A stretch of 64,000 nucleotides of DNA, from contig OZ241737.1 in assembly GCA_965200885.1 (NCBI GenBank), positions 782,214 to 846,213 on the forward strand, given 5' to 3'. The stretch's first letter is position 1. Each line of letters begins with the position of its first letter. Both the position numbers and the translations under genes were made by a program. The notes beneath the pieces were generated by a model. It did no database searches, was not told the origin of the DNA, and saw only the letters and a program-made list of their open reading frames with translations. Shown piece after piece: positions 13,582 through 51,857 of this stretch. Source of the DNA: Paracoccaceae bacterium. Lineage in GTDB: Bacteria > Pseudomonadota > Alphaproteobacteria > Rhodobacterales > Rhodobacteraceae.

Positions 13582-13793
13582 GGCGATTATATACTTGTTT
13601 CGCCATTTTCCAAAAAAGCATCTAAATCCAAGGTCAAATGTACACATTGCTTCAAGGAATTTTTCATTTTCAAGATACCCCCAGAATGATGCCAAGGTCA
13701 TAATGAAGCACCCTTCAAAGAAGAATTGAAGGGTGCTGTGAAAGAAGAAAATCGTTTGAAATTGATGTTTGGGGAAACAAGTATATAATCGCC
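13582..13793. mobile_element. TIR element A (212 bp, non-autonomous)
   Basis: Perfect 20-bp terminal inverted repeat: GGCGATTATATACTTGTTTC at 13582-13601 and its reverse complement at 13774-13793. Internal hairpin GCACCCTTCAA..TTGAAGGGTGC. No flanking duplication. Confidence 0.6.
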
Positions 13794-13859
13794 ATAATTT
13801 TGGACCGCCCGATGCAGAAGCCAACCCCGTCCCACCAGGCGAGATCCAGGCCATTCCCG

Positions 13860-14300
13860 ATCATTGACTGTAATGAGCCAGGTTTGCGACGGGACCAGTC
13901 AAAGGCCGTTTCACCCCTTGCCAGATCCTCATGAAGGGTATCTCTTCCGGCCTGTTTTCACCGGTAGCAATCCGGAGGGGATTGCAGCCTTTTTCGTCCG
14001 GATCCATTGCATTGAAGTCGGCCCTTGCCAATCAGCATCTACAGGATATCCCTGTCATGGCTGTCCCTCCTGATGGCAAGGTAGAGTGCATATGGGTATC
14101 CTGGCTCCGGCATCGAGGAGGGTCCTGACGATTTCCGGATCCGGGGTGTCCCCGACCACATTCTCCAGTGGTGTAAATCCTGAAGAAGGATGGGAATTGA
14201 CATCGGTTCCGGCCTTGAGATAGTCTTTGGAAATCGGCAAGGGGTGGCTGTTTCAAACCAGTCGTATTCGTGCCAGGCAGGGTTAGCCCGGTTTTCATAC
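13860..14300 (-). pseudogene. ankyrin-repeat protein gene broken by frameshifts
   Basis: Ankyrin-like segments (GFTPLENVV..PEIVRTLLDAGA; YALYLAIRRDSHDRDIL) are split over at least two minus-strand frames. Confidence 0.45.
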
Positions 14301-14654
14301 ATGACGCAGCTCCCTTTTTTCAAGACGGTTTGGGTTAATTGGATATATGGGAATCAGGGCGGGATCCTGCAATATCCGGGAAATACATCCTAATGATGAA
14401 CGGGCCAATCCGTTTTCATTGGATTTGAAACCTCCTTGGCATAAAATTTGAATAAGGTTTTTCCTTTTGTCAGTTTCCGAATATCCCTGCTCGGCGATCG
14501 GGGAATAAAACAACATACATCCATTGCCACATATTCTGTGACCAAAGGGCAACATGGTATCGCAAAAAGGGCAGGACCATTTGGATCCGCTGGAAGAAAG
14601 CCCATCTCTTCTCACGGCAAGGGGTGGAATGCCCCTGTTTAATTTTGATGACAA
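14295..14654 (-). CDS. hypothetical protein with a possible zinc-ribbon (CPFC..C..C)
   Basis: ORF only, in a GC-rich region where spurious ORFs are common. Confidence 0.25.
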   Translation of the reverse strand: MSSKLNRGIPPLAVRRDGLSSSGSKWSCPFCDTMLPFGHRICGNGCMLFYSPIAEQGYSETDKRKNLIQILCQGGFKSNENGLARSSLGCISRILQDPALIPIYPINPNRLEKRELRHV

Positions 14655-14827
14655 GGCAAGGGACCATTCATGGATAGTGACGATACCGGTGAAAGCATGA
14701 AAATTACGGCTGGCCTACCGATGGTCCCCATGGTCATGAACGGATTCGGGGAGGGTGTCCCGCCGATGTGATCCCTGTTGTCATTATCCCATGGCCAGGC
14801 CCCGAATGGATAAAAAGGGAAAGGATC

Positions 14828-15799
14828 ATGGACAGGATGATGGAAAGCCCATGGCAATGCCACCGGGAAATGGAAGCCGCTAGGGAAGAACTGGCACGGG
14901 CCAAGCGGGAAAGGGAACAGGCGCGGCTGGACAGGGCCTTTGCAGCCTTTCGGGTCGAACCACTGTCCCGGGCCATCAGTACTGGTGACGTTGGTGAAGT
15001 CGAAAGACTCTTGACATCCGGTGTACCTTGCGGTACCAGCCATATTGATGATATCACCCACCTGCATTATGCCCTGCATCAAACCCATGGCGAATGTGAC
15101 CCGGAAAGGCTGGAGACCGTCAACCGGATTGCCAGGCTCCTTGTCATGGCCGGTGTGGATCTCGCGGCACGGGAGAAGCCGGGACTATTCACACCGCTTG
15201 AACTGGCTGTCGTGAACTGGCCGGGGATTACCCTGGACACCATCCGGTTGTTGCTGGAAAGGGGTGCCGATATGCATGCCGTGAATGCCTATGGTGAAAC
15301 GCCCCTCTACCGGGTCATCGAATGCCGGGACGCACACCAGGTGGTTGAACTGCTCCTTGAATTCCAAGATGATGGCCAGCTGGACCAGTCTAGGCTCGAC
15401 GGTGACAACAGGCCGCTCCACATGGCCACCTTCTGTGGCAATGCACATGTCACCAGAATGCTTCTGGGAAGAGGGGTTACGGTCGATTGCATCAATGGCA
15501 GGGGGTACACCCCACTGCAGATCGCAGCTGCCAACGGGAATGCCGGGACAGTATCTGCCCTTCTCGAACATGGGGCCAGTATCACAGCCACCGGCCTGCA
15601 TGGTGATCAGCCGCCCCTCAGGCTGGCCATTTTTTTCAATGCCAATCCGGAAACCGTGAAACTCCTGATCGAGGCCGGGGCCAATCCCGGCAGCTGGGAA
15701 AACGAAGGGGTGGCAAAAAGATGGCCGACTCCGCTTGAAATGGCAAAACGCTTGAAGCGGGAGAGGATTGTCCGATTGTTGCTGGAAGCCGGTGCCTGA
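14828..15799 (+). CDS. ankyrin-repeat protein
   Basis: At least five ankyrin repeats (TPLELAV..LLLERGADMHAVNAYGETPL; RPLHMATFCGNAHVTRMLLGRGV; YTPLQIAAANGNAGTVSALLEHGA). The start is uncertain: 14768 or 14828. Confidence 0.75.
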   Translation: MDRMMESPWQCHREMEAAREELARAKREREQARLDRAFAAFRVEPLSRAISTGDVGEVERLLTSGVPCGTSHIDDITHLHYALHQTHGECDPERLETVNRIARLLVMAGVDLAAREKPGLFTPLELAVVNWPGITLDTIRLLLERGADMHAVNAYGETPLYRVIECRDAHQVVELLLEFQDDGQLDQSRLDGDNRPLHMATFCGNAHVTRMLLGRGVTVDCINGRGYTPLQIAAANGNAGTVSALLEHGASITATGLHGDQPPLRLAIFFNANPETVKLLIEAGANPGSWENEGVAKRWPTPLEMAKRLKRERIVRLLLEAGA

Positions 15800-15853
15800 T
15801 TGCGGATACCGGTGACGGTTTCCATCTGCCGGTCATGACTGGAGAGTTGGCAA

Positions 15854-16654
15854 TTGCCTAATAGGACGATGATGGTTATATTCAGGAACAGAAAAAGGAT
15901 CAAAACCATGAAAATCCCTGAAACCGGAACCGAACATCACTGGACTGGCCCCCTGGGGTCGGATTTCTGGCAGTTGTGTCTGGATCCAGAAATGGTCGAA
16001 TACATGAACTGCAGGATCACGGACTGGAACATCCTGGGCCGCAGGATGCTCATCGATACTAGGGAGGGCATTGTTTCCTGGATCAATAGGTCGGGTACGA
16101 ATGCCGACATCATGGTGGCCGTCGATCACATTGTGGAAGCTGCAGGGGAAGTAGTGGGGAAGAGGATCAAGCAGATGCGCGGAACCCGCTGGCGGCATCC
16201 GGATGACCCTCCGCGGACCGGGATCGAGGCCAACAATTCCTTCTATGTTGGAAAAAAGGCCGAGGAAAAAATCGAGGCATTTGTATCCGGTGGGAGGCAG
16301 GCATCCGAGGAGTTCTGTGACCGGACCCCACCCGATCTCGTGGTTGATGTCGAGATCACCCCCAATGACCGGGACCGGCCGGCAAGGTATGCCGGGCTCG
16401 GTATCCCTGAAGCGTGGCAGGTCCATTCCGATCCGGACCAGGACACGAAAATTGAAAGACCTGTTGTTGAAATGCTAGATTTGCAGGCTGGGGGCAGGCC
16501 GCGCAGGATCGACAGGTCAAGGGTGATGCCGGGTCTCACGACCCAAAACATGCCACGGTTTTTCCATCCGGCCATATTGATCATCAGTATGGAAGGACAT
16601 GCCGAACTGAGGAAATTGCTGGCGGAGGAAATGAAAAAACCGACGATTCACTGA
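15854..16654 (+). CDS. Uma2-family (DUF820) restriction-endonuclease-fold protein
   Basis: PPDLVVDVEITP...RYAGLGIPEAWQV matches the Uma2 PD-(D/E)xK core pattern. The start could be the internal Met near 15908. Confidence 0.6.
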   Translation: MPNRTMMVIFRNRKRIKTMKIPETGTEHHWTGPLGSDFWQLCLDPEMVEYMNCRITDWNILGRRMLIDTREGIVSWINRSGTNADIMVAVDHIVEAAGEVVGKRIKQMRGTRWRHPDDPPRTGIEANNSFYVGKKAEEKIEAFVSGGRQASEEFCDRTPPDLVVDVEITPNDRDRPARYAGLGIPEAWQVHSDPDQDTKIERPVVEMLDLQAGGRPRRIDRSRVMPGLTTQNMPRFFHPAILIISMEGHAELRKLLAEEMKKPTIH

Positions 16655-16850
16655 TCCAGGCAAACGGGATGATTTGAACCGGATTTGGTGGAATCGATAA
16701 GAAGGGCAAAAAGACTCTCCTCAGGATGGCCGTGAAGGGCCAAAGAATCGTTTGGGGTTATCATGATGCCAGCATCCCCTTTTTGATTTTTCCGGATGGA
16801 GGCTTGTGATGGGGACGAAGTTCCTGATTCCTCTGAAACACGAACCTATC

Positions 16851-17018
16851 CATTCAGCTTGGCGGTTCAGTTCCCGTGTTCATGATTCGCATATATTCTG
16901 GATAGGAATAAAGCCTGTTTCTTTTCTGCCCTGTAATCTCTTTTACCATGCCATGTCCTTCCATTTTCCGCAGGCAGGCATTGACTGTTGCAGGCGAGAG
17001 GCCGGTTTGTTCCCCAAT
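16851..17018 (-). pseudogene. C-terminal winged-helix remnant, Fic-family-like
   Basis: Minus-strand translation IGEQTGLSPATVNACLRKMEGHGMVKEITGQKRNRLYSYPEYMRIM.. stop. It is cut off exactly at the left inverted repeat of the IS630-like element. Confidence 0.4.
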
Positions 17019-18107
17019 CTAGTATCTCGCCTCATTTGATATGATGGTCATGCCCCATCAACTACAGCGGTTTGCAAATTCCTCCCCTTCACCTTGTGTT
17101 TTCCGCAAGCAAGCATCAAGGGCAGTAACCGGTTCGAACAACGGCCTGCCCATTTTGGCGGTTGCATTCGTCCTGGTTCAAGTGGGGAAGTCATGGAACA
17201 GGCAAACAGGAGGATTTACCGGGTTGAGCCGACACCGGAAGAACATCGGCCATTGCGCCGGATCGTGGACAGTGGAAAAGGGTCGGTCCGGTATCGCCGA
17301 CGGGCCCCTGTTCTTCTTCTGGCCGATGAAGGTCACAAGGACGGTGGTTGCCACGACAGAGCCATTGCGGGTATTGTCGGGGTCGGCATGGCGACGCCCG
17401 GGCGTGTCCGCAGGCAATGTGTCATGGAAGGTCTGGATATGCGGCCCTGTCCCGCACGGAACAGGTCAACCGCAGGAAACGCCTCCTTGATGGCGAGGGG
17501 GAAGCGGTGTTGACCAGGCCGGCCTGGTCGAAGCCTCCTTCCGGGCGTTCGGAATGGACCATGCGGATGCTGGGTGACCGTCTGGTCGAACTGGAGATTG
17601 CAGACGGCATGTCGGCGGAAACGGTGCGACGGACATTGAAGGAAACGACCTGAAGCCCTGGACCGGGAAGTGCCGGGTCACACCTCCCCGGGAGAATGCC
17701 GATGTCGTCTGTGCCACGAAGGATTGTGCCGGGGACCTTGCGGATGTCCACTTTCCCGGCAGGAGGATTGTCCTGGTCATGGACAGCCTGAACACCCACA
17801 GGCTGTCGACCCTGTACGAAACCCTTGAACCCGGGGAAGCGTCCCGCCTGTTTCAAGGGTTCGAGGCTCATCATGCCCCGAAGCACGGCAGCTGGCCGGA
17901 CATGGCCGAAATGGAGATGAATGTCCTGTCCCCACGGTGTCTGAGGCAGCGCATGCCGGACCGGGAAACGATGATTGCGGAAGTGGGGGCCTGGGAGGAT
18001 GGTCGCAATGAAGAAGCGGCGACGACAGACTGGCGGTTCCGGGCGGAGGATGCCCGGATGAAACTGAAGTCACCCTACCCATCAAATCTATAATGGCGGG
18101 ATACTAG
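17019..18107 (+). mobile_element. IS630-family insertion sequence with a degenerate transposase
   Basis: 13-bp terminal inverted repeats: CTAGTATCTCGCC at 17019-17031 and GGCGGGATACTAG at 18095-18107. The transposase is split over three frames (HTH part, ..WTMRMLGDRLVELEIADGMSAETVRRTLKE, ..VMDSLNTH..HHAPKHGSWPDMAEMEMNVL..). The region that normally carries the first catalytic Asp residues appears to be deleted. Confidence 0.75.
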
Positions 18108-18640
18108 TCCTAACTTCAACTATTAACTTTGCTATTCGGGATTCCTATTTTTGACTACCGGGGTTGAGCATCAAAGAATTTTTGCCCAGTGACCTTCTGG
18201 TTCCGAGTACCAACGCTTCTGTGAAATTGAAATTTACGTTCTGCGGTACGTTTGTCAAGTAATTGATGAACCCTGATCGGAGGGCTAAATCATATATTTT
18301 GGCTTGTATAACATTTCCAACATCTAATTCGATTTTCCTGATCAAAATCAAATTTTCCACCACCAGCGACCAAAACCGATCTCTGAAACATTACCTTGCG
18401 CCTCCTAGATTGACAGGGACTTCATTCTGGTTGCGGCTATCTGGTGTTGGTTCTACAACCGGCAAAATCCGACCCGGAGTTTGAACAGTTTGTTCCAGCC
18501 CTCCACTTCCGGTCGCAGGTAATTTCAGAACAAGACGGTTGGCATGGGAAACCAGCCTTCCACTGTGGTAGATTAACGCCGCCCGGAACGCCTTCATCCG
18601 GACCTGCATCCATTTTGACCAGACCTGCTGGATTGCAACC

Positions 18641-18731
18641 AATTCCCTAGTTTCCGACACATAATTGTAAAGCGTTGGAATCGAGATCCCAAGTTCCTTG
18701 GCTAATTCGCCTGGCTTGCTTTCCGGGTTCC
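18641..18731 (-). pseudogene. serine-recombinase C-terminal HTH remnant
   Basis: Encodes KPGELAKELGISIPTLYNYVSET. It aligns at nucleotide level with 24171-24260 of the intact recombinase gene. Confidence 0.55.
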
Positions 18732-18814
18732 TTATGCATTCCCTGCGGTTCATCGACAAAACAAAATGTCTTCTATCAGTTGACATATACAGGCAAATTG
18801 ACTATCTGATTGGC

Positions 18815-19093
18815 ATGATCGTGTCCTTTGTCAACAAACATCTCAGGGATCTTTGGGAAACAGGCAGGTCGCGGAGGATCGACGCAAGAATGCACGCACG
18901 CATCCTGCGTAGGCTTGATGCACTGGATAATGCATTGCAACCTAGGGATTTGGATCTTCCGGGATTCGACTTTCATGCACTCAAGGGTTATACACCAACA
19001 AGATATACGGTTCATGTAAACGGTCCCTGGTGTGTTACTTTCGAGTTTGAAGACGGGGATGCCCATATGGTAAACTATGAACAATACCACTAG
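18815..19093 (+). CDS. higB: HigB-type (RelE/ParE superfamily) toxin
   Basis: 92 aa. MIVSFVNKHLRDLWETG..LDLPGFDFHALKG..WCVTFEFEDGDAHMVNYEQYH follows the plasmid-maintenance killer protein pattern. Confidence 0.8.
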   Translation: MIVSFVNKHLRDLWETGRSRRIDARMHARILRRLDALDNALQPRDLDLPGFDFHALKGYTPTRYTVHVNGPWCVTFEFEDGDAHMVNYEQYH

Positions 19094-19103
19094 GAGGTAA
19101 AAA

Positions 19104-19406
19104 ATGATGAAGCGGAATCCCGATCACTGTCCAACCCACCCTGGTGCTCTTCTTCGTGAAGATGTATTACCGGCGGTCAAGAAATCAAAGACCGAAATAG
19201 CTTGTCTGCTCGGTATTTCCCGTCAGCACCTGCATGCCATTCTGAAAGAACAAAAGCCGGTCAGTCCGGTGGTAGCTGTTCGTCTCGGCAAGCTTTTCGG
19301 GAATGGGGCTGGCCTCTGGATCAGGATGCAGGGCGCCCATGACGAATGGCATGCTTCCAGGACGGTTGATGTATCCGAAATTCCAACATTGCACACAGCG
19401 AAGTGA
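19104..19406 (+). CDS. higA: HigA-type antitoxin (Xre HTH)
   Basis: HPGALLREDVL..TEIACLLGISRQHLHAILKEQKPVSPVVAVRLGKLFGNGAGLW. It starts 10 nt after higB. Confidence 0.8.
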   Translation: MMKRNPDHCPTHPGALLREDVLPAVKKSKTEIACLLGISRQHLHAILKEQKPVSPVVAVRLGKLFGNGAGLWIRMQGAHDEWHASRTVDVSEIPTLHTAK

Positions 19407-19410
19407 CAAA

Positions 19411-19854
19411 ATGACTCGACCGGTAAGGGAAATCTTGAAAGAAGTAAAGGAATTGGCCATAGAGTATTACGAAACGACAGGAAAACCCCTCGGGATTACA
19501 GGTGAAATTGGGGAATTTGCAGCTTCGGAAATCATGGGATTGGAGTTGACGGGGGCTCGCCAAGAAGGATATGATGCCATTCGATCTTCTGATGGTTCTC
19601 GAATACAAGTCAAAGCACGACGCCTTGTTTCAGTAAATCCAGGAAGGGTACCCAAAATAGATACTGACAAGGAATTCGACAGTGTCATGCTGGTTATGCT
19701 TGGAAAAGATTATAAAGTTCGGGAAATCTGGGAAGCAAGGCGGGAAGCCGTAATCACCAGGCTTGATGAACCGGGTTCAAAAGCACGAAATGAAAGACGG
19801 TCAATGGGGGTAAGTCAATTCAAGTCAATTGCCACAAAAGTATGGCCATTGTAA
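19411..19854 (+). CDS. small PD-(D/E)xK nuclease-like protein
   Basis: Starts 5 nt after the higA stop. Pattern GEIGEF..(19 aa)..GYDAI..(7 aa)..IQVKAR fits an E...D...Q-x-K restriction-endonuclease core. Confidence 0.5.
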   Translation: MTRPVREILKEVKELAIEYYETTGKPLGITGEIGEFAASEIMGLELTGARQEGYDAIRSSDGSRIQVKARRLVSVNPGRVPKIDTDKEFDSVMLVMLGKDYKVREIWEARREAVITRLDEPGSKARNERRSMGVSQFKSIATKVWPL

Positions 19855-20375
19855 GGCTCGTCAAGGATGCCCTTGGTAGGTGCGTTGCAACATTCGGCTG
19901 TCTGGAATATGTATTGTTCCAGGCCTGTTTTTTGTTCACAGGCAATAAGGTTTACCCAGTAGAAACCTACTCCCTCGAAGAAATGGAGGAAAAGGTCCGG
20001 GAGTGGGATAGCGAAGAGGGGAAGGCTCTATCGGATCAACTAGGGCAGTTGATTATAAAATTTGAAAAAGCAATAAGGGATTATCCCAATTCCAAAACCG
20101 ATGGCTTGGAGGAATTGTTGGATCATCTCAAGAAAGGAGTGGATATCAGAAACATGCTTTGCCACGCTTTTTGGCCATCTCCTGACAGGAATGGTTTTAC
20201 AAAACCCTTATACTTCAAAAGGGATTTTGAATATTTTGATAAACCCGTCAATTTGGCCTTCTTGAAGCAAACAAGGCAACATACAACAGAGCTTATTCGT
20301 TTGGTCTTGAACATGGTAGCTTCAAATGGATTGGAGCTTCCAGAAAGAGGCAAACCCTCGCAGGATATTTTGTAA
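19842..20375 (+). CDS. hypothetical protein with an Rx4H (HEPN-like) motif
   Basis: Overlaps the upstream gene by 13 nt. Contains DIRNMLCHAFW (R-x4-H). No other recognisable motif. Confidence 0.4.
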   Translation: MAIVRLVKDALGRCVATFGCLEYVLFQACFLFTGNKVYPVETYSLEEMEEKVREWDSEEGKALSDQLGQLIIKFEKAIRDYPNSKTDGLEELLDHLKKGVDIRNMLCHAFWPSPDRNGFTKPLYFKRDFEYFDKPVNLAFLKQTRQHTTELIRLVLNMVASNGLELPERGKPSQDIL

Positions 20376-20416
20376 CTAATCACGACCGCTCCAAAGGTAC
20401 TACAAACCCGGTACCC

Positions 20417-20650
20417 TCAACCCATATCCTCCCTCGCCCGCATGATGGTCTGCCGGCTTGTTTTCATTGCCCTGGCGATGGCCGGGACCGATTCCCCATC
20501 TTCAAGCCTGTCACGTACCTCCTGCCTCCGGTCCGGCAACAGCACCGTAGGCCTTCCCGGTTTTTTCCCTACGTCCGTGCCATCCCGGCATGTGTCCGTT
20601 CAATGAGAAGTTCGCGTTCGAACTGGGCAACGGCATTGATCTCGTTCATG
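20417..20650 (-). pseudogene. 3' fragment of a second serine-recombinase gene, frameshifted
   Basis: Minus-strand MNEINAVAQFERELLIERTHAGMAR. After a frameshift at an A-run it continues GKKPGRPTVLLPDRRQEVRDRLEDGESVPAIARAMKTSRQTIMRARE. The catalytic N-terminal domain is absent. Confidence 0.6.
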
Positions 20651-20670
20651 GTCCACTTGCTTCATTTTGA

Positions 20671-20854
20671 ATGGTGCTTATATACCTGGCTAGCCAAAAC
20701 ACCAAAAAGTTTGGAAAATCGGGAGAAGGAGACACCTTCATCCAACGAAAACAAGGCAATTGCCGAAGAAATTCACCTAAGGGCAAAAGCGATTGCGGAA
20801 TCCCTGTTCAAGGGGAAATAACCGATTATGGCTAGCCAGGTATATAAGCACCAT
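20671..20854. mobile_element. TIR element B (184 bp, variant ends)
   Basis: Perfect 25-bp inverted repeat: ATGGTGCTTATATACCTGGCTAGCC at 20671-20695 and its reverse complement at 20830-20854. It shares the TTATATAC(C/T)TG core with the other elements. The flanks ATTTTGA and ATTTTAG are only roughly similar. Confidence 0.55.
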
Positions 20855-20892
20855 ATTTTAGGATTGGGATTTTTTGAGAGGGTGAAAAAGGG

Positions 20893-21243
20893 ATGTTCGA
20901 GATGGGGAATTGTTTCCTTGAGCTGGACATCCTGGATGTCAACCATGTAAAGGGTACGGGGATGTACGGGAACGGGGAATTTGTCCCCCGCGACCTCTAT
21001 GATTTGTGCACGGCTGCCGAAAAGGATCCCAGATCACTTCGGTTGGCCCTGGGGATCCTGACAGGCAGTGAACGGGAGGAAATTGCCGGGGAAATCAAAT
21101 CATTCGGGTTCCGTGCTTCCGGCCTGGGTCGTGAACTTGTTGCGGTCCACCGGCCGGAATGGTTGTCCGGTCTCGGTCGCCGGACGGCCGACCTGATATT
21201 GTCACCTCCCGAAGTAAGGCCCGACCCGGTTCAGGGTTCCTGA
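20893..21243 (+). CDS. hypothetical protein
   Basis: ORF only. Convergent with the phosphatase-like gene. Confidence 0.3.
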   Translation: MFEMGNCFLELDILDVNHVKGTGMYGNGEFVPRDLYDLCTAAEKDPRSLRLALGILTGSEREEIAGEIKSFGFRASGLGRELVAVHRPEWLSGLGRRTADLILSPPEVRPDPVQGS

Positions 21244-22214
21244 CCTGGCAATTCCTCGCCCTTGTGATAGGCAAGGGCCTGTTCCTCATTCCAGGGATTT
21301 TCGAAAATGTACTGCAGCCGTTCAAGCAGTTCCCCGGGGGTTGTGCCTTCCAGCAAGAGGCGATTCCGTTCATGGTAGGCCCGCTGGACATTCAGTGCCG
21401 CCGCATGGAGCCGGCCTCCAAAGCCCAGCATGGAATCGGCAATGCGGGCAATCTCCCAGTTGCTGTCAATTTTATCGATTCCTGCAATGATCAGGTGGAT
21501 GGCCGAAACCCTGGGATCGCCAGTCATCATGCTGTGGGCAGCCAGGGCGGTGGCTGCCGATCTGTATTGACCCGCCGCACACCGGATCAGGAAGGAAGGT
21601 GCCCTCGCCGCATGCCATTCATTGAGAAAATCGACCAAGGGCCGGACATTCTCTTCCGATGGGGCATTGTATTTCCTTTGTTCTTCCCGGTTGTCCCAAT
21701 CCTCAATCTCAAAAGTGCGGACCGTCAGGGGCTTCTCTCCCTGAAGTGCATGAACAGCTTCCAAATCATCGCCGTACAAATGCCAACCGACCAGGGTGAA
21801 GAAGCGGATTTCAGGATGGTCCTCGAGAATGTATTCCCATGATCCACCAGCTGCAACATAGATACCTGGCCTTGTCAGATCCCCATACAGTTTTTCATGG
21901 AAGGGAAGAAGGATCTTCTGGACCGCTTGCCGATCGGGCCTAATCCAATTACGATCATATCCCGGGACATGATGGCAGAATTTTGGAACAACCCCGACAT
22001 CCGTGGGGTTGATCCGGTCAAGAAGGGCTTCCACCTCATGGGCAGGCCAGGGTTCAATGTCGTCAAGGGAAATTTTATCTTGAGGCGGGGGGAAGCTGGC
22101 CCCTTCCAATCCGGGAACCATTTTTTGCAGCAAGGGTTTTCCTGCAGCCCAGGAGTGCAGCGAAGTGGCAAGGTTTCTGGTTTTCCGGAAAAGGTTCATG
22201 GAAGTTTCCTTCAT
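21231..22214 (-). CDS. CX5R (protein-tyrosine-phosphatase-loop) protein, paralog 1
   Basis: Start set at MKETSMNLF. The longer ORF would overlap the upstream paralog. P-loop-like IRCAAGQYRSAAT. The C-terminal half aligns by eye with 22291-23157. Confidence 0.55.
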   Translation of the reverse strand: MKETSMNLFRKTRNLATSLHSWAAGKPLLQKMVPGLEGASFPPPQDKISLDDIEPWPAHEVEALLDRINPTDVGVVPKFCHHVPGYDRNWIRPDRQAVQKILLPFHEKLYGDLTRPGIYVAAGGSWEYILEDHPEIRFFTLVGWHLYGDDLEAVHALQGEKPLTVRTFEIEDWDNREEQRKYNAPSEENVRPLVDFLNEWHAARAPSFLIRCAAGQYRSAATALAAHSMMTGDPRVSAIHLIIAGIDKIDSNWEIARIADSMLGFGGRLHAAALNVQRAYHERNRLLLEGTTPGELLERLQYIFENPWNEEQALAYHKGEELPGQEP

Positions 22215-22290
22215 TGATAGCGGTTGTGGATGCTTGGGTCTGGATCCAAAACTGGAGTGTAATACAACCAACACTTGAAAATCTTCATAT

Positions 22291-23157
22291 TCAGCAACTT
22301 TTCGAAAACTGGCCGTGTCTTTTATTGTATTCAAGAGCCTGTTCCTCATCCCATGGATTGGCAAAAATCTCCTGCAAGTGATCCAGCAATTCCCCAGGAG
22401 TCGCATCTTCTCCCAGCAGCCTGTTGCGCTCGATCGTGGCCCGCTGGACATTCAGGGCCGCCGCATGGAGCCGGCCTCCAAAGCCCAGCATGGGATCGGC
22501 AATGCGGGCAATCTCCCAATTGCTATCCAGGTGGGAATGCCCGGAAATACCGGACATGACCATGCGGATGGCCGACACCGTGGGATCGCCGTTTATCATG
22601 CCGTGAGCCGCCAACGCCGTCACCGGTGAACGAAACAGTCCGGCGGAACAGCAGGTCATAAGGGACGGAAAACCGGCCGCTTGCCATTCCTTGAGAAAAC
22701 CGACCAGGGGGCGGACATTCTCCTCCGAGGGCAGGTCATCGTAAATAATGTAAGAGGATTTTGCGGGAGCCCGGGAATCACGGTCCCGAATCGAAAAGCT
22801 GCGAACCGTCAGGGAATCGTCGGCCCCTATTTGTCGGACAAACGCGCAAATCTCGTTGTCCATCTGATCATAGACATTGGCCAGAAAGCGGATTTCGGGA
22901 TGATCCACGAGGATCCGTTGCCAGCTTCCCCAACCACCAATATAGATACCGCCCCGGGTGCGGTCATGATAGGTTCTTGCCTGAAAGGCCGCCAGTTCCT
23001 TTGGTGCCCCTTTCAGCTTACGGGCCCCGGACCGGATTTCTCTGGGCCCGTGATGACAGATCTTAGGAATGGTGCCGGCATTGCTGCCGCTGAGCCGGTC
23101 AAGCATGGTGTCCAGGGAATCCCAGGGGATTTTCCTTGTCATGGAAATTATCTTCAT
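22291..23157 (-). CDS. CX5R (protein-tyrosine-phosphatase-loop) protein, paralog 2
   Basis: TCCSAGLFRSPVT. Shares the DSNWEIARIAD.MLGFGGRLHAAALNVQRA block with paralog 1. Confidence 0.55.
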   Translation of the reverse strand: MKIISMTRKIPWDSLDTMLDRLSGSNAGTIPKICHHGPREIRSGARKLKGAPKELAAFQARTYHDRTRGGIYIGGWGSWQRILVDHPEIRFLANVYDQMDNEICAFVRQIGADDSLTVRSFSIRDRDSRAPAKSSYIIYDDLPSEENVRPLVGFLKEWQAAGFPSLMTCCSAGLFRSPVTALAAHGMINGDPTVSAIRMVMSGISGHSHLDSNWEIARIADPMLGFGGRLHAAALNVQRATIERNRLLGEDATPGELLDHLQEIFANPWDEEQALEYNKRHGQFSKSC

Positions 23158-23545
23158 TGACTATGGTTGCATTTCCAAACGCCGGAATTCTATTGGCAGG
23201 TCTGTCCTGTACGAGTCAGCAGTCATTATGGTTAATTGGCTATGGCGCACTGGATATTTATTAATCAGAGGAATCCTGCAACATTCCGTGGGGATTATTC
23301 TAGAGCTTAAATCGGCAAATGGCTTCGGGCAATATATCAAGAGATAGCTGACAAAGCCATCGAAAAATTGAACCGGTATATGAAATAGCTTCTTTCACGG
23401 AACAGTTCAAATTATAACCTGAAAATTATTTTGCTAGGGTTCATTTCTGATTCAAATGATTATGCCATTTTTCCTGTGACTGGATACAGGATTGGATGAC
23501 AATTTCTAATTACAGGAAATTTATCCATGTGCAAACCATAAATTT

Positions 23546-23736
23546 GGGGATTATATACTTGAGTGACCAAACTGCAAAAATGTCAATTCCTGGAGGTGTT
23601 CAGATACCTCGAAGCGATTCCATTGCACTCTACGGGCTTCTCCGTGAGAGGTATTTTCAGGAATTTGCCAAAAATCAATAAATTTGCACCAAATCGGCTA
23701 GCCTGTGGTAAATGGGTATTCAAATATATAATTCCC
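23546..23736. mobile_element. TIR element C (191 bp)
   Basis: Ends GGGGATTATATACTTGA and TCAAATATATAATTCCC (15 of 17). AAATTT is directly adjacent on both sides. The interior is homologous to element F. Confidence 0.65.
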
Positions 23737-23747
23737 AAATTTAACAG

Positions 23748-23897
23748 AATTGCAACAATTTCTACGCGAGCTGCGAGCGGGTCTTCCGGCCTGACTGGAA
23801 GGATCGTCCGATCGCCGTGCTGTCGAACAATGACGGCTGCATCGTGGCGCAATCCCGGGAAGTTATGGAAAGCCTGAAAAGGTTGATCATGACCTAA
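23748..23897 (+). pseudogene. 5' fragment of a umuC-type Y-family polymerase gene
   Basis: Translates NCNNFYASCERVFRPDWKDRPIAVLSNNDGCIVAQSRE, the conserved UmuC N-terminus. There is no start codon. Similarity is lost after about 40 codons and a stop follows. Confidence 0.55.
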
Positions 23898-24124
23898 ATC
23901 CTAAGGAAACATGGGAACGAAAATATCACTGCAAAACGGAGGAATACAAGTGCGAACGTGAATGGAGATTACAAATAATGTTTTTACATTCCTTTAGAAT
24001 ACTAAATGCCGATTTGAAGTTCGGTTGGATGCAGGCAGGAAAATATTTTAAGATATCACCGTTTAAAGAAAATATTTTGTGACTTTCATTTGGTACTTTG
24101 GTATTATTCCCTAAAATTTGTGAG

Positions 24125-24742
24125 TTACTTGCCATCCTTTCCTTTCAGGACCTTGAGTCCGTTTGGTCGTAATTCACCCGTTTCCGATACATAATTGTAA
24201 AGCGTTGGAATCGAAATCCCCAATTCCCTGGCCAGTTCACTGGGCTTGGCATCACGGTCCTTCATGGCTTCTGCCAGCCCCAATACCTGGGTTGGCGTGA
24301 GTGATCTTGGACGTCCGCCCTTGCGGCCACGTGCCCGCGCGGCAGCAAGCCCTGCCCTGGTGCGTTCGGAAATGAGGGATCTTTCGTATTCAGCCAAGAC
24401 AGCAAAGAGATGGAACATCATCCGTCCCTCTGAGGTATTGGTATCCAGATTGCTGCCTTGCCCTTCCATAATCCGGAGGCCAACATCCCTTCTGGTCAAG
24501 TCTTCCACGATTCCAACGAGATGCTGAAGGCTGCGACCCAGGCGATCCAGCCGCCAGACGATCAGGGTATCACCCTGTCTCAGGACCTTGTTGCAATCAC
24601 TCCACCCCGGTAGATCCCTCCGGGTACCTGATCCGGTATCCGAATATATCCAGTCCGGAGCAACACCCGCCCTGATCAGGGCATCCATCTGCAGGTCGGT
24701 TGTCTGCTCGTGGGTCGAGACCCGCATGTATCCAATCAGCAT
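24125..24742 (-). CDS. serine recombinase (resolvase/invertase family)
   Basis: N-terminal catalytic motif LIGYMRVSTHEQ, VWRLDRLGRS, FAVLAEYERSLISERT, and a C-terminal HTH. Confidence 0.85.
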   Translation of the reverse strand: MLIGYMRVSTHEQTTDLQMDALIRAGVAPDWIYSDTGSGTRRDLPGWSDCNKVLRQGDTLIVWRLDRLGRSLQHLVGIVEDLTRRDVGLRIMEGQGSNLDTNTSEGRMMFHLFAVLAEYERSLISERTRAGLAAARARGRKGGRPRSLTPTQVLGLAEAMKDRDAKPSELARELGISIPTLYNYVSETGELRPNGLKVLKGKDGK

Positions 24743-24935
24743 TGTTTTCTCACCTTGGTTTGTTCCATGAAATCACCCCTCTTCATGGCCGATTACATTC
24801 GGGGGCTACCGGGTTTGATTTGGTGTGGGTGATGATCGACATCCGCTTGTTTTGGGAATAAACTGATTGAGTAGGGTTTTCCTCTAATCAAACAATGCCA
24901 GGTCAGCCATTTTCATTTGGGCGATCCCTTTCCTC

Positions 24936-26567
24936 TCATCCGGATTTTACATCCCCATTCTCCAATTCTTTCACTTTTTCCAGAGCAGCCACCTTTTTGA
25001 CTTCGGAAATTGTCATGCAACGTGCAATCCCCAGGGTTGTGGGGCTGGGAGGCAGGGGTGGTGGTAGCCTGCTCCGTTGCCTTTCCCTGATTTCACCCAA
25101 TTGAACTTCCCCCTTGGCCAGATCTTCCTGGAGCTGGCGTTTCCTCCGGAAGGAAAGTATCCCGGTTTTGTCGAGTTCATCCCTTTTCCTTTTTATATCC
25201 TGTTCAGTTGATTGGAGCTCCTTGTCCAGAAAGGAACCCTGCTCACGCCATTCACTGAGGGATTTTCTGTGCATCCGGCAGTGGTTGCGTGCTTGCCGGA
25301 TCATGTCATCCGTAGGTGGGGCCAGGGTGAATCCCCCAGTTTCGATAAGATAGGAACGGAAAGAGGGTATGGCAAAGGATATGGTATGGTCCTTTTTTTC
25401 AAGAAATACACCCCGATGAATCAGGTGGTCGGCAAAGGAACGTGCATCCATTTCAGCTGGCAATTGCCACTCGACACCACTTTTCGAACCGGCGTGCTTT
25501 GAAATGCAGTTGATTACATCCGACCTTCTGATGGTTTGATCTAGATCACCGAGAACCATTCCAACCAAGGAGAAGGCTTCTTCCATCGCTTTTGACTGTT
25601 GCCCCTGGTAGTAGCGGATTCGGCTTTTCCCTGCTTCCTTCTTGACAACTTCCCAAGAGACCTTGGAAAGATCACCACCAGACTTCAAGGCTTCCCGTCC
25701 CAATGTCTGCAGGGCAAAATGGAGGTGCCGTGGCCATCCCTCACACGGGGCAGCCAGTTCCATAATCCTTTCTTCATGACCAAGGGGGTCCATCCCGAAT
25801 CTGCGGCAACAGGACAGCATGAATTCACCGGCCTCTTCGGGGGTCAGCGATCCGATTTCATGGACTTTCTTGCCGCGGGTCAGGTTCATTTGACTTGCCC
25901 GGGCAGCGGTATCACCGAGTCCTGCCAAAACCAGCAACAATGGAAGATTCGTATCGCTGTTGTGGATGGATCTAAGAAAACCCGCATGGGGTGTCTCCAT
26001 CCCCCCACTGAATGTCTGGGCCTCGTCTATGGCCAGAATGACCGGGGCCTTCCATTTTGATGGAGGAAACAAACTTGCCAGGTCCCAGATATGCCGGGGT
26101 TTTTCCTGATTGTTCAAATCCCAGCCCAGTTCCGGTGTTATAGAATCCGGCCTGATTGCAACACCAAACTTGAGTTTTGACAAGAGCTTGCGCCAAACCG
26201 GTGAACTCAATCCGGCTGCCCCGGCCAGTATGGTAAGCACGCTTGGAAGGTCATCAGCAACCATCTCGGGTGAAACTTTCACAATACGTGGCGGGGGAAC
26301 AGAAGGAGTGTCCGCCTCAGCCACCATTTTTTCCTGCAACCGATTGGTCAGTTCGATGATTATTGAGCTTTTACCTGCCCCCGGTGCTCCCTGGACGACA
26401 CGTGTTTCCCCGGGATTGCCATGAGCCAGAGCTTCCCATCCCTTCCATGATCGCCTTGAGGTTGCCTCTATATCCTGGAGTATTTCCTTCCGGCCAACAA
26501 ATACCGGCGGGGGAGATTTGTCACCACTGGCAACGAACTCCTGCAGTCCTTCCCGATCAAATTCCAA
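24936..26567 (-). CDS. ORC/Cdc6-like AAA+ ATPase with a C-terminal coiled-coil/proline-rich tail
   Basis: FVGRKEIL lead-in, Walker A GAPGAGKSS, Walker B ILAIDEAQTF. The C-terminal 120 aa are rich in charged heptad-like sequence and are followed by PPPLPPSP. Confidence 0.6.
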   Translation of the reverse strand: MEFDREGLQEFVASGDKSPPPVFVGRKEILQDIEATSRRSWKGWEALAHGNPGETRVVQGAPGAGKSSIIIELTNRLQEKMVAEADTPSVPPPRIVKVSPEMVADDLPSVLTILAGAAGLSSPVWRKLLSKLKFGVAIRPDSITPELGWDLNNQEKPRHIWDLASLFPPSKWKAPVILAIDEAQTFSGGMETPHAGFLRSIHNSDTNLPLLLVLAGLGDTAARASQMNLTRGKKVHEIGSLTPEEAGEFMLSCCRRFGMDPLGHEERIMELAAPCEGWPRHLHFALQTLGREALKSGGDLSKVSWEVVKKEAGKSRIRYYQGQQSKAMEEAFSLVGMVLGDLDQTIRRSDVINCISKHAGSKSGVEWQLPAEMDARSFADHLIHRGVFLEKKDHTISFAIPSFRSYLIETGGFTLAPPTDDMIRQARNHCRMHRKSLSEWREQGSFLDKELQSTEQDIKRKRDELDKTGILSFRRKRQLQEDLAKGEVQLGEIRERQRSRLPPPLPPSPTTLGIARCMTISEVKKVAALEKVKELENGDVKSG

Positions 26568-27253
26568 TGAAATACACCTTCATTCACAATTACCAATGAA
26601 TACCGAACAATCCGGTCTCCCGTCATAATAACAAATGACTTACATTGGTCAATATTTAAGCCAAATCAGGCCAAATGCAAAAAATTCCCGAGCATATACA
26701 ATTAAACCGTGGATAAAACATCTCCACTGATCACAAAATCATATCCCTTTAATATATAATGCGTGCCCCGTTAAACAAACGGCCGTTTTTTTAACAATCG
26801 CCGGAATCATCCCGGTGGTATCCGAAAACATGTAAAAACCCGTTTAATTAACAAAATACAATAAACTACCCTTGATTTATCTTTCTATATGGCATTCTGC
26901 CGTTTTTCAATATAGTTTCCGGATATTTTCCTTCATGCGTTTGGAGAGTGGTGGAAACTGGTAGTCGAACCAGCTGCCCATGTCCTTCATGCAGTCGAAA
27001 TGGAACAATCCGTTCCTTTTTCGTGTATTACTCCAAACCTGTGATTAGTTCCGAGTAGGCCCGATCCAACAATGGTTTGATCATGAGGTATCGAGATGGT
27101 CCCATTATCTGAAGGTCAATTTTCTCATCTACACCCAAATCCAACCCTCTTTTTTCATAATACTCCCTTAGAGACTGAATCATAATTCTCAAAAAAATAA
27201 AAATGATGCTGCTTGACCTGAAGTTCAGAACTGAATTGGGATCAAAAATGGTT

Positions 27254-29469: not shown

Positions 29470-29478
29470 GAAAAGTGA

Positions 29479-30141: not shown

Positions 30142-30218
30142 CCTTTATAGCAATTCGACGGTCACTTCTTCAAGAAAAAGGCTCAAAATTAGGAGGTTTC
30201 ACTTTATCCAATTTCCCT

Positions 30219-30767: not shown

Positions 30768-31153
30768 CGGATTACCTCTCTGTAATGCCAAAAAGTTGTA
30801 GTTGTTTGGTATTTTACCCACAGACTTCTTTATAAAAATGCCTGATGTCAAGGATCAACTTTTCCATTACATCACATATTTGAAATGTTCATGAATCTGA
30901 TTCTATAAGACAGGGTAATTCGAAGAACAGCAACTGATGCTGATGTGGTCAAGTTTAGGGAATTATATACTTTTATTACGCAAGCAGAATTTCCTACACT
31001 ACCAAGTCAAGGAACTACCGTATCCACACATCTTTTTTCGGGTGGTTGCATGCCTGTTCCCCCATTTCCTGAAAAACATCCATATCCACGGCACCACCAC
31101 TTGGCAGGCACACAGGGTGAGGTGGCCCTGCACGGCCTTTTCCCTTTTTTTCC

Positions 31154-31182
31154 TTGACTTGCACGGATTCCCGTGCTATATG
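31154..31182 (+). promoter_or_regulatory. sigma70-like promoter with a palindromic spacer (possible operator)
   Basis: TTGACT, then a 17-nt spacer, then TATATG. The spacer contains the inverted repeat GCACGG-ATTC-CCGTGC. It lies about 50 nt upstream of an AAGGAGGAG RBS and the ATG at 31230. Confidence 0.5.
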
Positions 31183-31229
31183 ACCGTCATGGAAAGGCAT
31201 CCGCAAACATCAAGGAGGAGAACCGACTC

Positions 31230-45230: not shown

Positions 45231-45328
45231 GTTTTCAAACTATATCCAAAAACTGCTGTAGGGATAATATTTGACCAGGGTCACCCCTATCAACCGATAG
45301 GGTATCCTCTCCCAATTCGACCAGACCT
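45231..45328. repeat. diverged copy of the moeA 3' end (left direct repeat, attL-like)
   Basis: Aligns base for base with 52258-52354. I count about nine differences by eye, including one 1-nt indel. The minus strand reads GLVELGEDTLSVDRG.. versus GLVELEEDTLSVDRG.. in intact MoeA. The stop codon and 9 nt of downstream sequence are also conserved. Confidence 0.85.
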
Positions 45329-45356: not shown

Positions 45357-46316
45357 GTTACGGTTGCCATACCGATCTAGATTTGCTACTCTAATAACGT
45401 CCTTATCGGCCGGATTTCCCCCGTTACGGTTGCCATACCGATCTAGATTTGCTACTCTTAGGTTAAATGTGTAATCCAATCCAAGACCGTTACGGTTGCC
45501 ATACCGATCTAGATTTGCTACTCTAAGAACCAGCAACAATCCTCGCTCGTCGACGTTACGGTTGCCATACCGATCTAGATTTGCTACTCTCGAAGGGATT
45601 ATCGGTGCTTACGTCTGGATGTTACGGTTGCCATACCGATCTAGATTTGCTACTCTGGTCGATCTCATCGGAAGCATCCGCGATCCGTTACGGTTGCCAT
45701 ACCGATCTAGATTTGCTACTCTGAGCGAGAGCGGAACAGGGGGCTGGACTAAGTTACGGTTGCCATACCGATCTAGATTTGCTACTCTCATGCCTGGAAA
45801 TAATGTTCGGCTGCGACTGTTACGGTTGCCATACCGATCTAGATTTGCTACTCTAGCTCAAACCGGCTCATTTAAGATATGAATGTTACGGTTGCCATAC
45901 CGATCTAGATTTGCTACTCTCGCATCCAGCATCAACATTCCGATACTGATGTTACGGTTGCCATACCGATCTAGATTTGCTACTCTCACCGATCACATCG
46001 GGAGGCATGACATATAGTTACGGTTGCCATACCGATCTAGATTTGCTACTCTGTTGACACAAAAAAATATCGTCTGTCTGTCGTTACGGTTGCCATACCG
46101 ATCTAGATTTGCTACTCTTTAGTGTGAGCATCTGCCATAATGGCAGCAGTTACGGTTGCCATACCGATCTAGATTTGCTACTCTGCAACTCGCCATTAAT
46201 CCAAATAGGATTATGTTACGGTTGCCATACCGATCTAGATTTGCTACTCTCATTAGCAGGAGCATGAGGAGGAGCGCGCAGTTACGGTTGCCATACCGAT
46301 CTAGATTTGCTACTCT
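45357..46316 (+). CRISPR. CRISPR array: 15 identical 36-bp repeats and 14 spacers of 30 bp
   Basis: Repeat GTTACGGTTGCCATACCGATCTAGATTTGCTACTCT starts every 66 nt from 45357 to 46281. The + orientation is inferred from the tracrRNA anti-repeat and terminator. Confidence 0.97.
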
Positions 46317-46713: not shown

Positions 46714-46743
46714 ATGAAAAAATCCATTTAATTTAAATCATGA

Positions 46744-47643: not shown

Positions 47644-47656
47644 ACATTTTTCTTTT

Positions 47657-50600: not shown

Positions 50601-50866
50601 GGAATATCATTATGAGGGAATCCGATTCCATTTTTAAGGAAGATTTGCGCCAAGCGTCGTAATCTCATTTGTTTTCTATCTATCATTCGCCTTTGAGAAC
50701 GAGCTAATCGACGAGTTTCTCCTCCAACTGGTGCCGACCAGGTTCTCACAAATCCTTCTTTAACACCAATAACATTTTCTTCCTTGTCAATTTCAATCAC
50801 AGCTAACCCAAGGGAAGCAACCCCAACATCAATTCCAAGATTGTATTTAAAAGGAGTTGTATTCAT
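47657..50866 (-). CDS. cas9: Cas9, type II-C size class (1069 aa)
   Basis: RuvC-I NLGIDVGVASLG, Arg-rich bridge helix RRLARSQRRMIDRKQMRLRRL, HNH EIDHILPRS..NMVLC..N, RuvC-III DDHRHHFIDALV. There is no csn2 or cas4, so subtype II-C. Confidence 0.95.
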   Translation of the reverse strand: MNTTPFKYNLGIDVGVASLGLAVIEIDKEENVIGVKEGFVRTWSAPVGGETRRLARSQRRMIDRKQMRLRRLAQIFLKNGIGFPHNDIPKYLLDKSPLKLRAKAVNEKIDLEELQRIILHMAKHRGSSAFDGRDNDEKDTLLTKEGIKKLEVKINEMGFKTYGQFLWYREKRRKKVRINQEVIGKGSYDFYPSRDLLRKEFDIIWQKQKEFHQEKLNDSFRESLEEELFFQRKVSTPPPGNCSYVTNEKRLPKSSRLFQEKRIYEEVNNLRFSHQGTPLPELTIGQRDELVESLMRGESLNKTDIKTIIGIKKNCKVNLEDSKARTEIAKYPFSNYELGEEWAELNAENKDFVLEILSTHFDKEEAVDKIKTVINLSDQLTKRLIQTDFPKGYGNLGKTATRKILVELKKHPTLSSRAAEDLAGLVHAQTPIGEIFRKLPYYGEVLKGYAIEPIWIFSENPSNKPPNTNFLEKKYGRAPNPVVHVALNQIRKAVNCLIDKYGLPEKIYVELARDLGKSEKTKALIEQKIASNREKREQIRRKLKENELEQTRPNELKYELWEQQKCKCVYTGDNISLIQLFSGEVEIDHILPRSKTYDDSKANMVLCKKSANAFKNNRTPYDAFSSDPNFDWDAIIRRVNDLPAGKKNRFKSDALERFENNPDYWRERFSIDNSYIAKITRQYLTCLYGKPENVIAVSSKVTSLLRKKWGLNKVLGGESSIKQRDDHRHHFIDALVVGCTTRSTIQKIQTAARHCEEKRILGIVDKIQPPFGGEREFWSHVEKVTQNVLLSRKPDNSASGQLHEDTLRGIVSGPHEKGKYLTRTKVKLGDIKSLTDLKKKKISGALIKGYGDNPSIADFTNNLNMIQNKVEGFCEKARLELRAEAIQNKNQGKKVRAITETLVYKKAIDLMKKKALPCYYWDFKEQKLVNVIKQGNKFNGGYLSGRNHRMDFYKNNKGKIKWQIITMFEANDETFVPESDKAGNALLWSAHKDDILLLDDPDNLNYRVRMIVVRISDGKMGVVKCTDAKDAGKRSLYERRLKFFKEKRAQRIITNHLGEPTYFFPMLNE

Positions 50867-50923
50867 TAATTTTTACCTTTTTCCATTGCTTTAATTTTTG
50901 AATTGAGACCAGAGAAATTCTTT

Positions 50924-51661
50924 AAGGATTATATACTTGTTTGTCCATTGCCTGATTTCAGTTCTTTTTCCTGTTTTCCAAAAACCGCCGGCCCTTCCCC
51001 GGCGGTTGCCTTGTCATTGCCTCGCCCACATTTTCAGGTGAGTCCTTGATGATGGGAAACTCCTCGCGGCCTTCGGGCCGGTCTGCCCCGGGTTTCCTTG
51101 TTTCGGGGGATTGCGTCTTAACCGTCGGACGGTCATTGCGGGTTGGCATGCTCTTCTCCGGGTATGGATAACGGCAATGCTTCAATTTTCCTTGCAACAT
51201 CATCAAGTTTCAATTCACCGGCCATACCCCCTCGACCTTCGGGGTTGCGGGATGCTGTCGCAATTCTTCGACAGGATTGCTGTTCCGAATCCGAACGATC
51301 CCCACTCAAGGTGAATCCGTCATTTCCACATTGAGCTGTTGGCAGGAAGAATGTCCACCATCGCCAAATCGCTCTTTCCCATTCGTCCGCTCTTGTCAAA
51401 ATGATTTTCCCACCCCATGTTTCCAGTCATCGGGAATACTCGTTCTCCTGGATGAAAAATGTGTTTGTGGTATTCCCGACCCTTCCCCCAAAAGCCTGAT
51501 TCCGAACGTTTCACCCCTTCGGGACGGAAAACGAACAAAATCGCAAGGGAATCATGTCCTTGACGGGATTTCCGGCCATCTTGTGGAAAAACCTCCCATG
51601 CACGTTCCTCCGGGTGTCAAGAGGCTAGTTGCAAAAATGGGGAAACAAGTATGTAATCTCC
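50924..51661. mobile_element. TIR element E (738 bp) with GC-rich non-coding or decayed cargo
   Basis: Ends AAGGATTATATACTTGTTTG and GAAACAAGTATGTAATCTCC. Flanking 8-mers AATTCTTT (50916-50923) and AATTCTTA (51662-51669) match at 7 of 8 positions. It begins 57 bp upstream of the cas9 ATG. Confidence 0.6.
50980..51007 (-). terminator. intrinsic terminator inside element E (minus strand)
   Basis: CCGCCGG-cccttcc-CCGGCGG followed by TTTTT on the minus strand. Confidence 0.5.
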
Positions 51662-51676
51662 AATTCTTAATATTAT

Positions 51677-51857
51677 GGGAATTATATACTTGATTGAATT
51701 TCCCATTTACCGAAAATACAACAGGTGTTCAGACACCGCGGGGGAATACAATTGCACTCCAGGGGAATGTGTGTGGTAGGTTTTTTCACAAAATCGCCGG
51801 AAAACCAGCGATGCCTCCACAAAAAAATAGGGAAATTCAATCAAGTATATAATTCCC
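51677..51857. mobile_element. TIR element F (181 bp)
   Basis: Perfect 28-bp inverted repeat GGGAATTATATACTTGATTGAATTTCCC. Perfect 8-bp duplication AATATTAT at 51669-51676 and 51858-51865. Confidence 0.8.

Follow-up and report, generated by a model that had tools for sequence, protein, structure and literature searches.

Six miniature elements with IS1595-type ends, one of them holding a nested IS4-type cassette, in a natural marine Rhodobacteraceae population

Bacterial miniature inverted-repeat transposable elements (MITEs), such as the Correia elements of Neisseria and Nezha of cyanobacteria, are short, non-coding, multi-copy units with inverted-repeat ends that lie between genes, are polymorphic among strains and possibly bring outward promoters with them. 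The six elements described here, A to F, lie in a stretch of 64,000 nucleotides (hereafter the window) of contig OZ241737.1 of a Paracoccaceae bacterium (assembly GCA_965200885.1, positions 782,214 to 846,213) and are alike in these respects, but very probably come from another parent family and duplicate 8 bp of their target instead of TA or 2 bp. The presumed parent family is IS1595, whose ISNwi1 group has ends of the form 'ggnnatTAT' and includes a passenger-carrying subclass. Judged by this consensus, the window elements would resemble the group in their GGnnATTAT... ends and their 8-bp duplications. Full-length copies with window-type ends are also alike in frequently carrying passengers and in encoding a DDE transposase that has a zinc ribbon at its N terminus, whereas the window copies lack a transposase, contain 181-262 bp of element-specific DNA and come in several coexisting end subtypes. 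A reference for the family and the group is the 2009 account by Siguier, Gagnevin and Chandler (Res Microbiol 160:232). The literature describes the IS1595 family as one with usually 8-bp duplications and a single transposase with an N-terminal zinc finger, and lists an ISNwi group in it (PMC8101967). According to the same source, the eukaryotic Merlin transposons share an IS1595-related transposase domain, GG terminal bases and an 8-9 bp duplication; they differ by their eukaryotic hosts and are relevant only as the wider superfamily. The interior of the largest element, D, finds its closest counterpart in MIC231 of Bacillus cereus, which derives from the IS4-family element IS231: IS4-type ends around a gene that is no transposase define a mobile insertion cassette (MIC), and this structure is present in the window and in a second locus (L205). 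Unlike MIC231, the cassette in D belongs to another IS4 subgroup, its cargo is a secreted-protein gene with a poly-C tract, and its hosts are marine Proteobacteria.

An earlier reading of the letters of the window alone (the original prediction) had placed six inverted-repeat units between positions 13582 and 51857, and all of their coordinates proved correct (Table 1). The ends of the six units follow the consensus GGnnATTATATACYTG, or GGNN[AC]TTATATAC[CT]TG in a degenerate form. The exact core ATTATATACYTG occurs six times in the window compared to 0.01 expected occurrences, and with up to two mismatches it is found 25 times (7.0 expected), including all 12 element ends. GG starts 11 of these 12 ends, an A stands at position 5 in ten of them, and TTAT comes next in 11. 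When the first 24 nt of the left and right ends of the same element were compared, 23 were identical in A, 24 in B, 19 in C, 15 in D, 18 in E and 24 in F, compared to a mean of 16.1 for ends of different elements. The near-perfect agreement predicted for A, B and F was borne out by perfect runs of 20 nt, about 26 nt and 28-29 nt, respectively. One further sequence in the window, GGCAATTATATCCTTG at 53663-53678, is a single mismatch away from the end motif; it lies within a coding gene, is kept in all conspecific contigs and is a chance match and not an element end.

The flanks of D and F carry the predicted perfect 8-bp duplications, CAAGTTTA and AATATTAT, either of which would arise by chance at a given position with a probability of about 2-3e-5, and those of E (AATTCTTT and AATTCTTA) match at 7 of 8 positions, as had also been predicted. 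C is flanked just by the 6-bp AAATTT abutting each end, B just by a shifted and degenerate ATTTT(G/A)(A/G), and no duplication was detected at the flanks of A. Ends of the B type also bound a 230-bp MITE with a perfect duplication, AAATTTAA, in loci L209 and L249. The interiors of D and E are GC-rich as claimed, with GC contents of 0.55 and 0.52 compared to 0.36-0.47 in the small elements A, B, C and F, whose lengths range from 181 to 212 bp. The predicted lack of a transposase was upheld by tblastn of the window with four IS1595 transposases and by Pfam searches of the open reading frames (ORFs) of D and the six-frame translations of E. The six units are thus transposase-less MITEs with terminal repeats, several copies and, as described below, insertion polymorphism.

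The original prediction had proposed to look for a full-length copy with a transposase of a family that makes 8-bp duplications, and full-length relatives outside the window identified this family as IS1595. Viral contigs of IMG/VR were scanned with the end motif GGNNATTATATACTTG alone (16 nt), which yielded at least 120 loci. An IS1595-family transposase was detected by tblastn in 43 of the 120 loci listed, with the gene typically starting 50-75 bp inside the motif, for example in L016, L075, L095, L097 and L107. An ORF of L029 matched the Pfam families DDE_Tnp_IS1595 at 1.6e-40 and, additionally, Zn_ribbon_IS1595. On RefSeq plasmids of Roseomonas and Methylobacterium, genes annotated as 'IS1595 family transposase' lie directly inside GGGGATTATGTATTTG and GGCGATTATATCCTTT and are followed by PIN and VapC passenger genes. 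Full-length relatives with both such ends measure 1.4-3.5 kb and carry passenger genes, and reading the heterogeneous cargo of the window elements as a sign of novelty is not supported. Perfect 8-bp duplications were also found in small relatives from IMG/VR, namely in L041 (AAAGTTAT), L055 (CAAATTAT) and L048 (CTTGAATA), and in L048 one copy is inserted into the end of another copy. We also considered that each end might fold into a hairpin, with GGCGA...TCGCC pairing in A and GGGA...TCCC in most; this was rejected, as it is not supported by covariation among 53 distinct ends from transposase-bearing loci, where many variants, e.g. GGCAATTATATACTTGACAAAGC, lack a complementary partner.

In order to assess the mobility of the elements, the window was compared to ten conspecific contigs with 99.0-99.6% DNA identity from GCA_026709105.1 and several ENA, JGI and Logan assemblies. 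The window is part of the chromosome of an uncultured member of the Rhodobacteraceae. Its MoeA protein is 100% identical to a protein of NCBI metagenome-assembled genomes (MAGs) named 'Rhodobacteraceae bacterium', and its GyrB reaches only 61-66% identity to named genera among the matches listed; those listed from the genome collection were at most 61% identical. The empty sites that the original prediction had called for were found for F: in L258-L262, which come from five samples and are 98.98-99.63% identical to the window, the site is empty with a single AATATTAT. These contigs read GTAATCTCC AATTCTT AATATTAT CTAAAAAAA, which is the window sequence minus F and minus one AATATTAT, and F is missing in all nine other conspecific contigs that cover its site. 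Conversely, conspecific contigs have related MITEs at two positions where the window has none (Table 1), and one of these, window-equivalent position 62262, is precisely where L261 and L262 break off. Of the ten conspecific contigs, eight do not extend as far as 2 kb past moeA: seven terminate within E or next to it, and the eighth at the stop codon of moeA. Three also begin at another MITE insertion. Such breaks are expected of multi-copy repeats. These data reveal that the MITE family is active in a natural marine Rhodobacteraceae population. For D, no clean empty site was obtained: the more distant relative L255 (89.5% identical) lacks D, but its synteny with the window breaks down 10-19 bp beyond the right side of D.

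According to the original prediction, the interiors of the six elements are mostly unrelated, which turned out to be overstated. E aligns with A over its leftmost 143 nt and its rightmost 42 nt; in A, the matching stretches are positions 1-42 (79%) and 74-209 (60%). About 130 nt are common to C and F (65%), and positions 643-690 of E (48 nt) match F at 79%. By these pairwise matches, the interiors are related in pairs, and the subterminal sequence common to A and E and to C and F is what is expected of deletion derivatives from related parents. The end subtypes, A with E, C and F with D, and B on its own, would most simply come from different parent copies.

Likewise, the heterogeneous cargo that had been considered atypical of MITEs is mostly a matter of nesting: the cargo of D is a separate IS4-type cassette nested in a MITE. 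The cassette has inverted repeats of its own, also written CTACCGTATCCACACAT and CTATCAGATTCACACAT, and a flanking repeat, GTCAAGGA and GTCCAGGA, with 7 of 8 positions identical. Conserved parts of this interior (31013-31982) are 85-96% identical to DNA of genomes without the IS1595 shell. In L205, the same cassette with the same ends has its own duplication, GCCGAAGC, and the IS1595 shell is absent. A sister element of 1.22 kb with the ends of the D cassette is inserted in E in two conspecific contigs, L256 and L257, where it is flanked by duplicated GCAACCGC (8-10 bp, ambiguous). Given the inverted repeats of the cassette and these sister copies, D is an IS1595-type shell of about 265 bp holding an IS4-type cassette. 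Two ORFs of the L256 copy give collinear matches to the NCBIfam profile NF033590 (IS4 family transposase), with E-values of 1.5e-8 and 1e-6, over profile positions 67-174 and 200-401 of 405; both scores are under the curated cut-off, as expected of a decayed gene, and Pfam and PDB sequence searches with these ORFs were empty. IS4-family elements have short inverted ends and direct target repeats of about 8-12 bp; together with such ends and repeats, these transposase remnants place the cassette in the IS4 family. Its ends resemble the 19-bp ends of Tn5/IS50 (CTGTCTCTTATACACATCT). A search of IMG/VR for an autonomous partner of the IS4-type ends gave five unpaired matches that are probably due to chance. 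Cargo gene and cassette ends do not always go together, so that the gene may not regularly travel inside these ends: the pair of ends encloses no more than a 281-bp element, located upstream of the cargo gene, in L207 and L208, and L204 has the left end only.

Once one base in a C9 run is corrected for, the cargo gene of the cassette encodes a protein of about 226 amino acids with a signal peptide. Upstream of it, a candidate promoter with TTGACT and a TATATG-like -10 as well as an AGGAG ribosome-binding site were read by eye. The protein has 107 homologues with up to 71% identity and belongs to no Pfam family; the homologues come from MAGs named as Gammaproteobacteria, Thiotrichales, Roseovarius, Aestuariivita, Rhodobacter and Rhodospirillaceae. 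The gene is nearly invariant in its 5' and 3' thirds and strongly divergent (hypervariable) in its centre. The AlphaFold model, with a pLDDT of 89, shows a beta-sandwich with a helical, Cys-rich tail, and the structure matches were weak (fibronectin type III- or immunoglobulin-like folds at E values of about 1e-3 and TM scores of 0.25-0.33 on the query). The length of a C run near the start of the gene differs between copies: the window and L205 have C9, which puts the gene out of frame, L204, L207, L208 and L209 have C8, with the gene in frame, and L210 has C18. We hypothesize that the gene is phase-variable via this poly-C tract, the alternative being a homopolymer sequencing error. It is conceivable, though a tentative idea rather than a likely one, that the cassette carries a phase-variable secreted protein from one unrelated bacterium to another in marine and probably host-associated settings and that the abundant IS1595 MITEs serve as preferred harmless landing pads; the latter notion stems from the two in-species IS4-type insertions seen, which both lie inside MITEs.

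E can be described as an A-like MITE with about 500 bp of additional non-coding DNA. This part, absent from A, was searched for a structured RNA or a coding region, and neither was found. There was no Rfam match beyond a chance microRNA match, no excess of RNA folding (z-scores of +0.85 and +0.97), no ORF, a flat GC content of the three codon positions (GC1/2/3) in all frames, no Pfam domain in six frames and no similarity to any fetched locus. At 51547-51573, E contains a degenerate, GC-shifted end-like sequence, GGGAATCATGTCCTTGACGGGATTTCC, which matches the end of F at 21 of 27 positions. Similarly, GGTGGTTGCATGCCTGTTCCCCCATTTCC in the D cassette (31041-31095) is a GC-shifted look-alike of the left end region of A with about 70% identity over 52 nt, and is kept in cassette copies of other genomes. 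Such look-alikes in the interiors of D and E suggest older layers of the same element family.

With regard to the mechanism, we propose that the elements encode nothing and that one or several IS1595-type DDE transposases from elsewhere in the genome would bind their terminal repeats of 20-28 bp. The transposase would then cut an AT-rich target with a stagger of 8 bp and join the ends to it, and repair of the stagger would create the 8-bp duplication. That ends are alike within and unlike between elements would be explained if a single enzyme has to recognize both ends of an element. The ends may additionally act in transcription. We examined 28 ends next to which a transposase gene lies. They have TTGAC(T/A/G) at end positions 14-19 (CTTGAC at 13-18), and a -10-like hexamer with up to two mismatches from TATAAT follows 16-18 nt past TTGAC in 22 of them, compared to 6% of random positions. 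The core would therefore double as the -35 box of the transposase promoter, and this box presumably overlaps the binding site of the transposase. In the outward direction, TATAAT stands 4 nt from the tip in ten of the 12 window ends, the exceptions being TATAAG in B and TGTAAT at the right end of E. Fair -35 partners are present in A and at one end each of C (left) and E (right).

Given these data, we consider it very likely that the six units are MITEs derived from IS1595-family elements and moved in trans, and that the largest copy is explained by IS4-type nesting. An alternative for D, and perhaps E, is that they are true cargo-carrying units, either mobile insertion cassettes or transposase-deleted elements of the 'ISNwi1+' type, in which the IS1595 ends move the whole 1.2 kb together with the passenger gene. 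The duplicated CAAGTTTA flanks the entire D of 1234 bp, so that the composite may have come as one piece, and full-length relatives with such ends do bear passenger genes. We nevertheless regard this alternative as rather unlikely, since the gene lies within a second pair of inverted repeats that transposes alone elsewhere (L205, L256) and, together with its IS4-type ends, is found in other genomes without the IS1595 shell. Moreover, it is compatible with nesting and concerns the order of events only: the cassette may have entered the shell at this site, or the composite may have arrived as one piece. It is highly improbable that the link to IS1595 is coincidental and that another family with 8-bp duplications, such as IS1, IS6, ISL3, IS66 or IS256, is responsible: IS1 and IS6 share ends starting with GG as well as 8-bp duplications, and no transposase was found in the genome, but an IS1595 transposase lies directly inside the motif in the 43 IMG/VR loci mentioned above, where no other family was searched. 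Least probable of all is that the motif is an immobile regulatory palindrome or a promoter-bearing repeat similar to repetitive extragenic palindromes. The outward TATAAT-like hexamer at all ends and the location of several elements 20-130 bp upstream of start codons, including those of cas9, gyrB and the gene to the left of B, would fit such a role; the perfect 8-bp duplications, the clean empty site of F and two more polymorphic insertions among 99%-identical strains do not. The empty sites already refute this as the sole explanation, and a side effect of the elements on neighbouring genes is possible.

Several observations weigh against our preferred interpretation of the six units as IS1595-derived MITEs. 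A lacks a duplication, and B and C have imperfect ones. The interior of E, about 500 bp in length, is not accounted for by this interpretation and is regarded by us as decayed mobile DNA. No autonomous copy was found for the species, and tblastn with four IS1595 transposases detected none in the window. A 28-mer of the F end as well as 23-mers of the F and B ends had zero matches in genome or metagenome collections. Ends of the B and A/E types were never seen next to a transposase, and scans of IMG/VR with them gave single matches that were apparently due to chance. The assignment to the ISNwi1 group is tentative. Finally, in one lineage (L256, L257, L264 and L265; window-equivalent positions 51646-51676), the right end of E reads GTATATAATCCCC and is directly followed by AATATTAT, so that the flank is seven nucleotides (AATTCTT) shorter, and the terminal repeat deviates from that of the window at two positions; this may stem from a small deletion or from recombination with a neighbouring MITE that has since been lost.

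Table 1 Coordinates of the elements and associated features in the window.
Feature	Position	Strand	Remarks
Element A	13582-13793		212-bp MITE, A/E subtype; ends GGCGATTATATACTTGTTTC, 20 nt perfect
Element B	20671-20854		184-bp MITE; divergent end GGTGCTTATATACCTGGCTAGCCA; family core from 20673
Element C	23546-23736		191-bp MITE, C/F subtype
D, left duplication copy	30950-30957		CAAGTTTA
D, left arm of shell	30958-31012		IS1595-type MITE; end GGGAATTATATAC
D, IS4-type cassette	31013-31982	+	About 970 bp; boundaries uncertain by 1-2 nt
D, cassette ends	31015-31033; 31961-31979		CTACCGTATCCACACATCT; CTATCAGATTCACACATTT (reverse complement); 17-19-nt inverted repeats
D, secreted-protein gene	31230-31917	+	About 226 aa, signal peptide; C9 run at 31249-31257 breaks the frame, C8 would restore it
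D, right arm of shell	31983-32191		End (reverse complement) GGGAATTATATAT
D, right duplication copy	32192-32199		CAAGTTTA; 119 bp upstream of gyrB ATG
Type II-C CRISPR-Cas locus	45357-46316; to 50866; 51918-51948		Array; cas2, cas1 and cas9; anti-repeat
E, flanks	50916-50923; 51662-51669		AATTCTTT; AATTCTTA
Element E	50924-51661		738 bp; ends homologous to those of A; 57 bp upstream of cas9 ATG
E, undisturbed target site	51001-51010		GGCGGTTGCC; filled by 1.22-kb IS4-type element in L256/L257
E, interior absent from A	51067-51565		About 500 bp, GC 0.52
Element F	51677-51857		181-bp MITE; 28-nt perfect ends; AATATTAT at 51669-51676 and 51858-51865
Site empty in the window	56871-56872		C-like MITE end (CGGGATTATATACTTGAATAC) in L256, L257, L264 and L265
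Site empty in the window	62262-62263		F-like MITE in L263, 89.6% identical to F

The genes of the window include gyrB, a class A penicillin-binding protein gene, urease, mttB and ETF-QO genes, ankyrin-repeat and toxin-antitoxin genes, and a type II-C CRISPR-Cas locus. The region from the penicillin-binding protein gene to gyrB (13400-32200) is a variable island. It is heterogeneous in GC content (0.43-0.62), holds four of the six MITEs and encodes ankyrin-repeat proteins, a resolvase, a HigB toxin and an AAA-ATPase; L255 has other genes, with a HepT/MNT toxin-antitoxin pair, before gyrB. A direct repeat of about 98 bp, located at 45231-45328 and 52258-52354 with 88-96% identity, is a duplicate of the 3' end of moeA and encloses the whole CRISPR-Cas locus plus E and F; it looks like the boundary of an inserted island. 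E and F add 934 bp (in 50867-51917) between the start of cas9 and the anti-repeat of the trans-activating CRISPR RNA (tracrRNA), which would otherwise be about 100 bp apart. This anti-repeat has a promoter-like TTGACT at 51889. The native promoter of cas9 may thus have been displaced, or replaced by the outward TATAAT of the left end of E. The sole Rfam match at gathering score in the window is 5_ureB_sRNA (60032-60320, plus strand, 137 bits); it lies inside the gene for the urease alpha-subunit and most likely reflects conserved coding sequence and not a Helicobacter-type antisense RNA.

The elements are of an ordinary kind and represent no new element type, but they are unusually well documented: they provide a case of an IS1595-derived MITE family with both empty and filled sites in public metagenomes. 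They also illustrate that the apparent 'cargo' of short inverted-repeat elements can be mere transposon nesting, and that MITE repeats break metagenome assemblies. The gene for the secreted protein, which is horizontally shared and has a poly-C tract of variable length, may be of interest to researchers working on surface variation in symbionts. For the organism itself, the elements occupy promoter regions, 57 bp from cas9, beside the promoter of the tracrRNA and 119 bp from gyrB, and as they carry outward -10 boxes, the expression of neighbouring genes could change.

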